Positions 6,432 through 9,941 of a stretch of DNA of 14,709 bases are shown piece after piece. The stretch lies in the UHGV virus genome UHGV-0109417. The stretch is one strand, 5' to 3'. The notes beneath the pieces are model-generated. The model was not told the DNA's origin. It saw only the letters and a list, made by a program, of their open reading frames with translations, and made no database searches. Both the position numbers and the translations under genes were made by a program. Source of the stretch: a virus. How positions within the stretch are numbered: position 1 is the first letter of the stretch; each line of letters begins with the position of its first letter.

Positions 6432-7208
6432 ATGGTTAAAAAAGACGATTTAAAAGAAGAATTCTCGAAAAGACTTCGCGCTGCATTGCTTGATGCTGGC
6501 GTTGGTGGTCGTGGGCAGGCTGGTAGGATCAGAGAGGCTATGAAGTCCCAAGGAATTACTGTATCTGAGCCCGGGATCTGGAAATGGCTTAACGCATCAG
6601 CGATACCAGACCAAACCAATATCCTTGCCCTTAGCCGCTGGCTTGGGGTACGGCCTGAGTGGCTTGAATACGGAAGGAATGATCCCGAACCTGAACTGCG
6701 TAGGGAGTCATCTATCCCTCCAGAATCTGAATGGGGAACTGTTGACGCCTGGGATAAAAACACACCGCTTCCTGCTGACGAGGTTGAAGTGCCGTTTCTT
6801 AAGGATATTGAATTTGCGTGTGGCGATGGACGCGTACACAGCGAAGATCACAATGGTTTTAAGCTCAGGTTCTCAAAGGCAACCCTCCGCCGCGTTGGAG
6901 CTAACACAGATGGGTCTGGCATCCTGTGTTTCCCTGCTACTGGCGACAGCATGGAACCTGTGATACCGGATGGTACGACTGTAGCCGTCGATACGAACAA
7001 CAAACGCATAGTTGATGGGAAACTGTATGCCATTGGTCAGACAGATGGCGGGAATGGTCAACTCAAGCGCATTAAACAGCTGTATCGTAAGCCAGGTGGG
7101 AAGCTGATCATCCGCAGCTACAACAATGAGGCCTACCCTGATGAAGAAGCTGACATTGATGATGTTGAGATAATCGGCCGCCTCTTCTGGTACTCGGTAT
7201 TGCTGTAG
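6432..7208 (+). CDS. cI: CI repressor (N-terminal HTH, C-terminal S24 LexA-like autopeptidase)
   Basis: 258-aa ORF with G-D-S-M serine motif and downstream Lys (KRIK) typical of S24 peptidases. Divergent from cro. Confidence 0.9.
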   Translation: MVKKDDLKEEFSKRLRAALLDAGVGGRGQAGRIREAMKSQGITVSEPGIWKWLNASAIPDQTNILALSRWLGVRPEWLEYGRNDPEPELRRESSIPPESEWGTVDAWDKNTPLPADEVEVPFLKDIEFACGDGRVHSEDHNGFKLRFSKATLRRVGANTDGSGILCFPATGDSMEPVIPDGTTVAVDTNNKRIVDGKLYAIGQTDGGNGQLKRIKQLYRKPGGKLIIRSYNNEAYPDEEADIDDVEIIGRLFWYSVLL

Positions 7209-7254
7209 CGGTGGCCTGATGAGACGTTTTGGTGAAAGCATATAAGGACTGGTG

Positions 7255-8121
7255 ATGGAAAACACTGGCTTACACGATGTTAATTTTTCACTTAGATATG
7301 ACGGTTTGGATGCTGAAAAGCATGAGATTGAACTTTCTTCGCTCGGTGAATCGCTAAAGGGATTTTCGAAGATATTAGCTACAGCTGGAACCTTCGCATT
7401 AACCCAAAAGTACTCGCGAAGCACCTCAACTCAAGAGGTTAAAATTTACGCTACCGAAGCTAGGGCCAATTGTTTTTCTCTTGATACTATCATGAATTTT
7501 ATCAGTCAGTCTCAATTGTTCTCAGGGTCTGCGGGGGCTATACTTGGCGCATTAGTGCCTTATATCTTCGCTAAAAACTCGCAGAAGAAAGAGGAAATGA
7601 AATACCTAAAAGAAGCACTTGAGAAGGCAATTGAGGCCCTCGGAAATAAAGATAAAGATACCATCTCAGGTCTAATCTCAGTGATTGACAAGATGGCTAG
7701 TGAGTTACGCCCATCAGTTAGACAGGCAGTTTCCCCCATCGGTACCACCTGTAATAAGATAAGCGTCACACCGGGGAATGGTTTCAAGCCTGCTGTAATT
7801 GATGAGCAAGATAAAGCAGTAATAGACCAGTTGGACGACGACGAAGTTCTTGGCTTAAGGGAGTATCGAATCTTCCTTACTGAATTCGACGCTCACCGAA
7901 TGACCGCTAAAGTCATTATAGAAGGTGATGATTCAGATAAGCGCATCTCAGCACAAATAAGCGATCCATCTGCTTCAAAGGCAGACAACCCGTATCTCAT
8001 TTCACTTAGTCGTTTTCTGTCAACGGGTCTAAGTCATGAGTCAGCGGTAAAAGTAACTGCCAAAGCAGCAGTTAGAAAAGGGGCTATTAGTAAACTTTTC
8101 ATAGTTGATATTGAGCTTTAA
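7255..8121 (+). CDS. Hypothetical protein (288 aa) in the rexAB-equivalent slot downstream of cI; candidate exclusion/defence gene
   Basis: ATG at 7255 with AAGGA RBS, 47 bp after the cI stop and on the same strand. Ends at a strong intrinsic terminator. AT-richer than cI. No similarity to RexA or RexB recognised and no obvious multi-pass TM segments. Confidence 0.8.
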
Positions 8122-8124
8122 CAA

Positions 8125-8147
8125 CCGGCCACCGCGCCGGGTTTTTT
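8125..8147 (+). terminator. Intrinsic terminator ending the cI operon
   Basis: Stem CCGGC/GCCGG (8125-8129/8136-8140) with loop CACCGC, followed by GTTTTTTG. Confidence 0.75.
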
Positions 8148-8412: not shown

Positions 8413-8520
8413 AAATCCATAACAGAACTAAATTAACCAATAAATCATAACCTTAATAACCAATGGCAAAATAATTAACCAACGGTTATTGACTGAAAAT
8501 AACCATTAGTTAATAATCAG
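8413..8520. promoter_or_regulatory. OL operator / PL promoter region
   Basis: Palindrome TTAACC-AAC-GGTTAT (8475-8489) and further TAACC/GTTA half-sites like those in OR. Plus-strand promoter TTGACT (8489-8494), 16-bp spacer, TAATAA (8511-8516). Confidence 0.6.
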
Positions 8521-8582
8521 CTCATCGAAACGAAACATCGACAGCTGAGCGAAGTTAGCCAGCGGCGGACAGCAAGTCGCCT

Positions 8583-8603
8583 GCTTCTTTAACAAATCAG
8601 ACT
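8583..8603 (+). promoter_or_regulatory. boxA-like antitermination element (nutL position)
   Basis: TGCTTCTTTAACAAATCAGAC, about 60 nt downstream of the putative PL start, resembles consensus boxA (CGCTCTTTAACAA) and the rrn leader boxA from memory. Confidence 0.5.
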
Positions 8604-9143: not shown

Positions 9144-9365
9144 TTACTTGAACTTCCAGCCAGTTCCTTTCAGGGAATTCCTGAGCATGTCGTCGATCTG
9201 TTTTTTGACCGTGTCCGTGGCCTGATTGACAACATCGTCCTTAGTGATTTCTCGACCACAGTCAGCACAACTGACGCCGGTGAAATTTGTCTCAAAGTCA
9301 AAATCATCGGGCTGGTTGAACATCTCACTTCCGCAGTCAGGGCACACGGTCCGCATGGTTTGCAT
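9144..9365 (-). CDS. Small zinc-ribbon protein (CPDCG...CADCG), 73 aa
   Basis: ATG at 9365 preceded by AAGGA. Two CxxC pairs spaced 14 residues apart. Codon usage is better than that of the antisense plus-strand ORF 9057-9404. Confidence 0.6.
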   Translation of the reverse strand: MQTMRTVCPDCGSEMFNQPDDFDFETNFTGVSCADCGREITKDDVVNQATDTVKKQIDDMLRNSLKGTGWKFK

Positions 9366-9503
9366 GAATATATCCTTTCTACTGTTGGGGAGATTAAAGA
9401 GTAAGCGATTTCTTGCTGTTGGGGAATAGCGGGAAAGCGCGCGCCGGGCGCGGATAAATACCCCGGCACTAACTGGAATGTTTTGGGCTGGCAGACGGTT
9501 ATC

Positions 9504-9540
9504 AGCTAGTTGGTGAGGTAATGGCTCACCAAGGCGACGA
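9504..9540 (+). other. 16S rRNA helix-11-like segment forming a perfect hairpin
   Basis: AGCTAGTTGGTGAGGTAATGGCTCACCAAGGCGACGA matches, from memory, the conserved 16S region around E. coli positions 240-290, in a non-enterobacterial variant with compensatory changes. Stem TTGGTGAG/CTCACCAA with loop GTAATGG. Flanks (about 9450-9585) show weaker 16S-like similarity. Confidence 0.45.
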
Positions 9541-9623
9541 CGGCCTTCCCTGCTGCTTGAAAGCGGGGAGCCAGCACCAAAACATTTCTCCCGCATCAGC
9601 GGGTAACGACAGAGGGTAAGGGG

Positions 9624-9920
9624 ATGATCGACGACATCAAGCGCATCGACTCAATGATAAATGCGCTTCGCAATATGAAACAGGACATCAAGCGTCAGCA
9701 GAAACTAAGTGAAATAAACAGTTTAGACCTGTCGCCGAAGCAAGCTCAAAAGCGCAATGCCGATGCTGACTGGATTGCGATGGAACAGATTAAGCGTCGG
9801 CATGAGCTGCACGCTCTGTCTGTTGAGCTTGGGTTCGCTGAGCGCCGGGAAAGTTATGCTCCATTTGAATTAACTGACGGGTGGCACCGATTCGACCACA
9901 AGCCGCGCGAACCTCAATAG
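9624..9920 (+). CDS. Hypothetical protein (98 aa), first clear ORF of the early-left operon
   Basis: ATG preceded by a purine-rich SD (AGGGTAAGGGG). Followed immediately by an intrinsic terminator. Not Arg-rich-motif N-like. Confidence 0.6.
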   Translation: MIDDIKRIDSMINALRNMKQDIKRQQKLSEINSLDLSPKQAQKRNADADWIAMEQIKRRHELHALSVELGFAERRESYAPFELTDGWHRFDHKPREPQ

Positions 9921-9941
9921 CCGCCTAACCAGCGGCTTTTT
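9919..9941 (+). terminator. Intrinsic terminator inside the early-left operon
   Basis: Stem AGCCGC/GCGGCT (9919-9924/9932-9937) with loop CTAACCA, followed by TTTT. Confidence 0.55.

Follow-up and report, generated by a model that had tools for sequence, protein, structure and literature searches.

A mobile phage RNA element resembling the helix 7/11/12 junction of 16S rRNA, a candidate mimic of the uS17-binding site

The early-left (pL) leader of UHGV-0109417, a 14,709-nucleotide (nt) stretch of virus DNA hereafter called the window, carries a 114-nt structured RNA element which contains an almost verbatim copy of helix 11 (h11) of bacterial 16S rRNA. The window is a lambdoid prophage of Escherichia coli; a 231-bp query (9400-9630) spanning the element is 100% identical in strain ABWA45 and in others, and the CX04-CX21 strains likewise have the identical locus. 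The element belongs to a family that is conserved among unrelated phages and mobile across genomic contexts and that, judged from the alignments, reproduces the h7/h11/h12 junction of the 16S 5′ domain in miniature. Our best reading, to which we assign a probability of roughly 0.45, is molecular mimicry of the site of ribosomal protein uS17, as a decoy or as an operator, the binding itself being putative. The initial annotation of this DNA had reported a helix-11-like hairpin and offered three explanations for it: a captured host fragment, a decoy for a ribosomal protein or factor, or chance convergence. The decoy appears to fit best of the three. That annotation did not extend to the width of the phage family, to the element being one allele of a lambdoid cassette slot, or to the open reading frame (ORF) called across it by the Prokaryotic Genome Annotation Pipeline (PGAP).

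The 37-nt core of the copy (AGCTAGTTGGTGAGGTAATGGCTCACCAAGGCGACGA, 9504-9540) has the sequence and pairing first described for it: nucleotides 9510-9517 pair with 9525-9532 to give a perfect 8-bp hairpin with a 7-nt loop. A permissive cmscan of 9300-9750 aligned positions 237-283 (helix 11) of the bacterial small-subunit (SSU) model, SSU_rRNA_bacteria, with 9498-9544 on the plus strand (32.2 bits, E=9.4e-8), the sole match among 4227 Rfam models. The score lies below the gathering score of RF00177 (50), and the gathering-mode Rfam scan of the whole window gave no match, because a single helix cannot reach 50 bits. BLASTN of 9493-9570 against 5426 complete E. coli genomes returned annotated 16S rRNA genes (90% over 40 nt, E=3e-5). 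Within this 40-nt helix-11 stretch the alignment has four differences from E. coli 16S and two from Salmonella 16S. The likeness to helix 11 is real and far beyond chance; chance convergence is rejected because the match is significant and because relatives of the element extend the likeness to h7, h11 and h12 and pass the Rfam 16S threshold.

The flanks of the core had been described as decayed 16S, which holds only weakly in the window. On the 5′ side CAGACGG stands where 16S has CAGATGG, a trace of the 3′ strand of h7, but the immediate flanks of the window core do not align to 16S; phage relatives keep a 16S-like h7 and h12. The GGC-GAC-GA strand (9533-9540) and the opposite A9504 are the same as in 16S and fit, as a sequence pattern only, that of a kink-turn (C-stem, 3-nt bulge, G-A on the bulged strand, A opposite). 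We take this strand to resemble that of Kt-11, the kink-turn of 16S.

The structured unit (9475-9588; Table 1) is larger than the core and folds into a three-way junction of the stems P1, P2 and P3, with a z-score for the fold of -3.5 when the 206-nt context of the element is taken. P1 is an 18-bp closing stem in which an outer part, P1a (9475-9486/9577-9588), is separated by the bulged A9576 from an inner part, P1b (9487-9492/9570-9575); in alignments P1a is common to other alleles of the cassette described below. P2 is the helix-11 copy, whilst P3 occupies the position of helix 12. The loop and stem of P3 vary among relatives with compensatory changes, and in GC-rich phages this hairpin is recognisable as h12.

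Comparison of distinct copies supports this fold. In A3, which aligns 43 distinct copies by plain MAFFT with no structure fitted, 95.8% of cells are paired and 18 of 43 pairs are altered on both sides, which none of 500 shuffles reached. In A6, a model-fitted alignment of 57 distinct sequences representing all types, the proportion paired is 95.9% and 33 of 40 pairs are altered on both sides (17/17 in P1, 6/6 in the base of P2, 6/6 in P3), again reached by 0/500 shuffles; the covariation score is 0.371, against 0.124 for the shuffles, and slid controls are 32-48% paired. Every variable helix of the family shows compensatory changes, and we conclude from these substitution patterns that the structure of the element is under selection. 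The plus strand is taken as the functional one, because it has many G-U pairs, which the opposite strand would show as A-C mismatches. Conservation of the hairpin in related prophages, which the initial annotation had proposed as a check, was found in this form: the element is present in related prophages and phages, with covariation in each variable helix.

The extent of the family was assessed by scanning IMG/VR viral contigs with a degenerate 30-nt pattern of the h11 core, which matched at least 100 contigs. Among the matches listed, the P1-h11-P3 architecture (closing stem, h11 copy, variable hairpin, closing stem) is present in 100/100 contigs, and 100 contigs have phage DNA on both sides of the element. 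No instance out of 108, the window included, continues into the neighbouring conserved 16S segments (ACTGAGACACGG, CCTACGGGAGGCAGCAG). The element is found in addition in the GenBank phages Yersinia vB_YenM_30.14, Escherichia ZCEC13, Klebsiella SBP, Shewanella Y11 and Streptomyces Omar and Stella. A covariance model of the element, R1, matches 9476-9588 of the window at 120 bits (E=5e-34), R1 having been built partly from the window sequence; types C, D, E, S, B, F and G match it at 40-116 bits, independently of that sequence.

Members of the family are ~95-125 nt long and fall into at least seven sequence types, which occupy differing genomic settings. Type A, to which the window belongs, is the type of lambdoid pL leaders, where the sequences upstream of it are of at least five kinds and the genes downstream of it differ as well. 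In P2-like phages, types D and E occupy the space between the genes for tail tube and tail chaperone. Type B lies between the terminase and portal genes, antisense to both; in ZCEC13 the type-B element is followed by its own intrinsic terminator. Type G is found in Streptomyces phages, at the end of the genome and in non-coding sequence. A same-strand ORF with a Shine-Dalgarno sequence begins 13-64 nt after the element in representatives of types A, C, D, E and G2 and in one of two type-S loci. The genes downstream of the elements are mutually unrelated (phi80 N-like, DUF2528, tail chaperone and others of unknown function), and a binding partner is therefore more likely to be a host factor than a neighbouring phage protein.

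Two further records with 16S-like sequence were kept apart from the family. Moraxella phage Mcat16 (KR093640; L219 1277-2648) holds a full-length 16S gene (1141 bits) in which the match continues into 16S, and it was excluded; the IMG/VR contig L217 (5300-5371) ends in genuine E. coli-type 16S. Both are probably contamination or chimeras and not mimics. Among type-B elements, the hairpins at the h7 position (GCGCAGGCUGAUGCGC) and at the h12 position (CCGGAGAUCAGCGCCGG) have complementary loops (GCUGAU/AUCAGC), which suggests that the two might form a kissing interaction. The loci noted for this two-hairpin scaffold, which in the lambdoid slot also surrounds inserts unlike h11, are L007 (1466-1590), L013, L017 and L029, together with L150, L195, L198, L131 and L160. 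Upstream of the type-B element of ZCEC13, a stretch of ~500 nt (L007 1150-1470) is annotated with several tiny overlapping 'hypothetical protein' ORFs. This stretch, in which a T-loop-like motif (GGTTCGA) is present, has the look of structured, non-coding sequence and may harbour additional small RNA modules.

How much of 16S has been copied is clearest in the GC-rich phages, where two copies exceed the RF00177 gathering score: L216 with 71.1 bits (model positions 108-309) and Streptomyces phage Omar with 68.4 bits (106-311). Both alignments take in GAGUAAC, the base of h7, h11, h12 with its CUGAGAGGG loop and a short closing helix, and ~95 nt (the remainder of h7 together with h8-h10) are replaced by a loop of 3-8 nt. 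The h12 stem of the GC-rich copies carries compensatory changes. The SSU model covers 113-308 in the Yersinia phage and 237-308 in the Shewanella phage. Type A has lost the h7 arm; its P1 is an elongated closing helix, and P3 corresponds to h12 in position alone.

The retained part of 16S corresponds to a known protein site: S17 contacts helices 7, 9 and 11 (PMC3359968), and the uS17-binding site has been placed near h7-h11 (PMC13389312). As far as the alignments tell, the phages keep the uS17-binding subdomain and delete most of the bS20 site (h8-h10). S20 was considered as a partner and set aside, since most of its helices (8, 9 and 10) are deleted.

These features also bear on the proposal that the element is a captured host fragment. 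Capture alone is insufficient, because the element is conserved in unrelated phages, is reduced to the junction and carries compensatory changes. Copies in enterobacterial phages bear non-enterobacterial 16S signatures (AUCAGC...GACGACGG), whilst those of Streptomyces phages and the AT-rich copies are, we presume, host-like in their 16S sequence. Such signatures suggest that capture occurred repeatedly or, alternatively, that residence has been long, with horizontal spread.

The element is, in lambdoid phages, one of many occupants of a hypervariable RNA cassette slot in the pL leader, a second and possibly more general finding. The window, HK639, Enterobacter phage BHUENT6 and phi80 have identical flanks (5′ GGAAUGUUUUG, 3′ CAAAGCAUUUCUCCCGCAUCAGCGGGUAACGACAGAGGGUAAGG), between which the inserts are wholly different; in BLAST, phi80 matches positions 178-231 of the query, in the frame region. 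The near-invariant frame consists of an outer stem (AAUGUUUUGG/CCAAARCAUU), a bulged purine, CCA, a hairpin (CCCGCAUCAGCGGG) and a Shine-Dalgarno sequence. Scanning viral contigs with the 3′ frame only (small-hairpin probe) gave at least 120 loci. Among the slot loci listed, ~22% hold an h11 insert; in the rest the structured inserts form ~25-30 clusters unrelated to one another, and a few loci have no insert at all. Measured from arm to arm, including the 5′ arm, the insert and the final bases ahead of the probe, the loci span 80-194 nt (median ~105). The frame is joined to different downstream genes.

Within the slot the inner stem P1b covaries with the insert, whereas the outer stem, the bulged purine and the CCA 3′ of the inner stem are nearly constant. 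Of 94 slot loci, at least 80 have R-CCA immediately 3′ of the inner stem; in the window it is A9576 plus CCA 9577-9579, and the fold has this CCA base-paired in P1a. P1b stacks on P3 in the fold (6+8 bp, 7-nt loop), an arrangement like an acceptor/T minihelix. ARAGORN identifies a 70-nt tRNA-like sequence as the HK639 insert (L001 1591-1660) and a second tRNA-like insert in L164 (11356-11426). At 15 loci with other alleles, no Rfam rRNA, tRNA or other family matched within the cassettes at E<=0.1, and R1 does not match the other slot inserts. Because these inserts have no Rfam match, the case for a 'library of host-RNA mimics' consists of the h11 allele and the two tRNA-like alleles. The M3 RNA of phi80 belongs, with P1 C4 and P4 CI, to the hairpin-type class of RNase P substrates (PMC5499578; PMC11143913), and we suspect that the phi80 slot allele (L110 ~1068-1212, nt 32826-32970 of NC_021190), which is carried by DH5alpha and TOP10 as well, is M3.

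If the element mimics the uS17 site, its action in the window might proceed as follows. It would be transcribed from pL once nut-dependent antitermination is active, and could then be released from the leader by RNase P or RNase III. The RNA would present its h7/h11 surface, to which free uS17, or another host reader of that surface, could bind. The bound protein would tune the translation or stability of the ORF 13-64 nt downstream, in the manner of a ribosomal-protein operator, and might in this way couple early phage expression to a surplus of host ribosomal protein, a proxy for growth state. An alternative outcome, which does not exclude the first, is that an abundant released small RNA would titrate uS17.

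Several observations weigh against uS17 mimicry. S17 also contacts h7, an arm that type A, the window included, lacks. Some members cannot be operators in a 5′ untranslated region: type B is antisense to the flanking late genes and has its own terminator in ZCEC13, and no ORF lies near the elements of Omar and Stella. The h11 search pattern itself accounts for part of the near-invariance of the distal h11 stem, and the loci found independently of the core, though mostly identical, include a few single uncompensated core changes. The slot holds ~25-30 unrelated inserts without rRNA similarity, so its general function need not involve ribosomal proteins. Finally, uS17 is without a known extraribosomal or regulatory role, a 2023 review of the extraribosomal functions of ribosomal proteins naming it as a primary binder only, with no regulatory role or operator.

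The element may instead be a processed, trans-acting small stable RNA of the phi80 M3 kind, released by RNase P or RNase III, in which the likeness to h11 would serve stability or shape and not uS17. The frame that the window has in common with phi80, the R-CCA present after the inner stem at most slot loci (at least 80/94), the tRNA-like alleles of HK639 and L164 and the resemblance of the P1b-P3 stack to an acceptor/T minihelix all point in this direction, and M3, P1 C4 and P4 CI are documented RNase P substrates (PMC5499578; PMC11143913). However, the place of M3 in the slot is itself our deduction, and the CCA of the window is paired within P1a. No antisense target of 11 nt or longer was found for the element within the 14.7-kb window, where the only two 10-mers are both direct copies and not complementary, and the permissive scan of 9300-9750 gave no Rfam C4 match at E<=10. 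Processing would also leave unexplained why the uS17 subdomain is conserved in phages that lack the frame. As a replacement for mimicry we hold this explanation to be unlikely; the two are compatible, and a processed RNA of this kind does not exclude mimicry.

A hypervariable slot with ~25-30 unrelated inserts in an invariant frame is also the pattern of an arms race, and an RNA that imitates a piece of 16S might absorb a host's or competitor's toxin, nuclease or modifying enzyme aimed at the ribosome. Phage tRNAs and pseudo-ToxI RNAs, which neutralise defence systems, provide precedents; the tRNA-like alleles in the same slot and the mobility of the module among unrelated phages and contexts agree with such a role. 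We nevertheless rate an anti-defence decoy as improbable, since the other inserts have no similarity to host RNAs and the frequent position just upstream of a start codon would not be needed; moreover, we know of no effector that targets 16S h7, h11 or h12. Slightly less probable still is a neutral filler, a piece of an rRNA gene captured by illegitimate recombination into the distal part of a leader stem, whose conserved base alone would be functional, for example as an RNase III site like that of the lambda N leader. A conserved frame around a freely replaceable insert, loci without any insert and occasional uncompensated core mutations would all suit a filler, but at least seven sequence types, in different phage groups and genomic contexts, all have the same rRNA subdomain, h8-h10 are precisely deleted, and there are compensatory changes in every variable helix, where a filler would not stay folded.

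That there is no RNA feature at all, and that the segment is the coding N-terminus of a minus-strand ORF or an artefact of assembly or contamination, is hardly credible. RefSeq does annotate an ORF across the element, a PGAP call of 150 amino acids at 9144-9596 on the minus strand ('ECs_2282 family zinc-binding protein'), and some phage records do hold genuine contaminating 16S (Mcat16, L217). However, the 60-residue NCBIfam hidden Markov model NF047912 matches residues 84-139 of this ORF only (nt 9180-9347). The 77 N-terminal residues form an R-rich, low-complexity extension before an internal methionine, and the element corresponds to residues 3-41 of this extension, which the model does not support. 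The call is probably over-extended, a more plausible product being a 73-residue CxxC...CxxC protein with Met78 (nt 9365) as its start. The coding explanation is rejected by the extent of the model match, and the element is non-coding. It is, moreover, present where the ORF is absent (CUPF06, M37H), and the lengths of the indels between cassette alleles are not divisible by three. As to an artefact, no fewer than nine RefSeq genome records of E. coli have exactly the same element sequence (11 carry it at >=98.8% identity), and the element recurs in at least 100 viral contigs with phage DNA on both sides.

Set beside the h7/h11/h12 junction of 16S (RF00177 ~106-311), the element keeps helix 11 almost base for base, with the kink-turn-like GGC-GAC-GA strand, and its h12-position hairpin abuts the closing helix, as in 16S, with 0 nt between them; GC-rich phage copies keep GAGUAAC, the base of h7 and the CUGAGAGGG loop of h12 as well. 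In contrast to 16S, the phage element is only ~95-125 nt long with h8-h10 deleted, the window element has no h7, and an 18-bp stem replaces the 3-bp closing helix. The element also lies on phage DNA, outside any rrn operon, and differs from the host's own h11 variant.

Autogenous ribosomal-protein operators mimic rRNA sites in mRNA leaders (S15, S8, S7, S4, L1, L20). Like them, the phage element is a folded 5′-leader RNA a few tens of nt before a start codon, imitating the rRNA site of a primary binder, here through the h11 copy and the junction, the binding itself being putative. The known operators, however, sit in the mRNA of the bound ribosomal protein and usually resemble rRNA in a few key nucleotides only, whereas the phage element is a mobile, near-verbatim copy of a helix and precedes unrelated phage genes (N-like, DUF2528, tail chaperone and others). 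We know of no uS17 operator.

Phage RNAs offer other comparisons. The M3 RNA of phi80, the C4 RNAs of P1 and P7 and the CI RNA of P4 have the same early-operon leader position and a stem followed by R-CCA, although the CCA of the window is paired within P1a. The frame is common to the window and phi80, and as in the C4/CI class the variable inserts could set specificity; C4 and CI, on the other hand, are antisense RNAs whose targets lie in the operon that encodes them, and the window element has neither such a target nor an Rfam C4 match. Phage RNA decoys (tRNAs, pseudo-ToxI) are likewise phage-made look-alikes bound in place of a cellular or defence RNA, but they imitate tRNAs or antitoxin RNAs and not an rRNA subdomain. 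To our knowledge, phage-borne imitation of an rRNA subdomain has not previously been described. The put RNAs of HK022 and HK639 and the lambda N leader with its RNase III site are structured RNAs of the lambdoid pL leader too, and cleavage of P1 by RNase III is a possibility. In CUPF06 the cassette directly follows an HK639-type putL-like RNA; in HK639 itself the putL-like RNA (L001 1042-1167) is upstream of, and separate from, the slot (1577-1680). Unlike put and nut elements, the window element contains no boxA or boxB, the boxA-like sequence of the window being further upstream (Table 1).

Mimicry of rRNA by leader RNA is known from bacterial ribosomal-protein operons; what appears to be new here is the phage carrier, the uS17 site as target, the near-verbatim copying and the mobility. 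In the full-text literature searched, which did not extend to Meyer's review of rRNA mimicry, the phi80 genome paper or the papers on M3 RNA, no phage rRNA mimic is described; no natural uS17 mimic was found in the sources checked, and in Rfam 15 no family other than SSU matches the element. A wider proposition, which we regard as doubtful, is that phages from hosts of several bacterial phyla carry a mobile mini uS17 subdomain that binds free uS17, as a sensor or as a sponge for 30S assembly, and that the slot of phi80/HK639-type lambdoid phages is a hot spot for RNA-level host manipulation or counter-defence and may be the M3 locus. If it were true, use as a sensor would couple phage expression to the state of host ribosome assembly, and use as a sponge would perturb 30S assembly. 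The slot would then display different host-RNA look-alikes, tRNA-like and rRNA-like, and virus-host cross-talk would have a new route, in which phages read or drain the pool of a primary 30S assembly protein. The element would also be a ready-made minimal uS17-binding RNA for studies of ribosome assembly. The M3 RNA of phi80 has been known since the 1970s, only as an RNase P substrate, and the cassette slot gives a testable handle on its purpose. On the practical side, such elements yield partial 16S matches inside bona fide phage genomes, and PGAP overlays a spurious ORF extension on them.

The surroundings of the element agree with the early-left leader placement given in the initial annotation: a pL-like promoter, a phi80-type leader and an N-like gene follow one another on the plus strand (Table 1). 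Just downstream of the promoter the leader aligns almost base for base with that of phi80, whilst the region of the promoter hexamers aligns poorly. The element ends 35 nt upstream of the N-like start, the Shine-Dalgarno region of which is at ~9612-9620, and has the same sense as pL transcription and as 16S. Neither ARAGORN nor the Rfam tRNA model found a tRNA in the window, and RefSeq has no non-coding RNA annotation at any of the ~115 E. coli loci that carry the element.

Table 1. Features of the element, the cassette slot and the surrounding pL leader (window coordinates unless another locus is named)
Feature	Position	Strand	Description and basis
Whole structured RNA, three-way junction P1+P2+P3	9475-9588	+	114 nt; minimum free energy -60 kcal/mol, z=-6.28 vs dinucleotide shuffles
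P1, 5′ strand	9475-9492	+	P1a 9475-9486 GGAAUGUUUUGG, conserved frame; P1b 9487-9492 GCUGGC, cassette-specific
P1, 3′ strand	9570-9588	+	GCCAGC, bulged A9576, CCA 9577-9579, AAACAUUUC; fold
P2, helix-11 copy	9497-9545	+	8-bp distal hairpin 9510-9532; Rfam SSU match, 16S gene identity
P3 hairpin, 16S helix-12 position	9547-9569	+	8 bp, 7-nt loop; abuts P1, 0 nt between
Small hairpin, invariant frame	9590-9603	+	CCCGC-AUCA-GCGGG; common to phi80, HK639 and every cassette allele
Slot loci	window 9475-9623; L001 1577-1700; L002 1577-1700; L110 1068-1245; ~100 IMG/VR loci L111-L211		
pL-like promoter	8489-8517	+	TTGACT-17-AATAAT; consensus scan
boxA-like sequence	8582-8595	+	TGCTTCTTTAACAA; homologous to annotated phi80 nutL boxA (alignment, phi80 feature table)
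phi80-type N-like gene	9624-9920	+	98 amino acids; BLAST to phi80 N, phi80 annotation, PHROG 25091
Terminator-like hairpin	9919-9937	+	directly 3′ of the N-like gene, position of phi80 tL1A
ECs_2282-family CxxC zinc-ribbon ORF	9144-9365	-	separate from the RNA element; probable start Met78 of the 150-residue PGAP call

The zinc-ribbon gene lies antisense inside the pL leader; in M37H the gene and its flanks are absent and the leader runs into the cassette. Between the cI-like repressor gene and pL, at ~7150-8140 of the window (L005 7745-8739), genes for a hypothetical protein and a YafO-family type II toxin occupy the position of lambda rexAB.

Other small RNAs were observed near members of the family and in the contigs analysed. 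In Streptomyces phage Omar (NC_054662) a type II hammerhead ribozyme (L009 1717-1781, plus strand; 47.8 bits against a gathering score of 37) is located ~1 kb downstream of the mini-16S element, between gp03 and gp04. The SraC/RyeA-SdsR/RyeB pair of small RNAs is present in two prophage-derived contigs, L112 (8444-8588, 175 bits) and L127 (11955-12099, 115 bits), in each case near the end of the stretch (8.4 of 9.0 kb and 12.0 of 12.5 kb, respectively), and may represent flanking host DNA or mark integration beside the small RNA locus.

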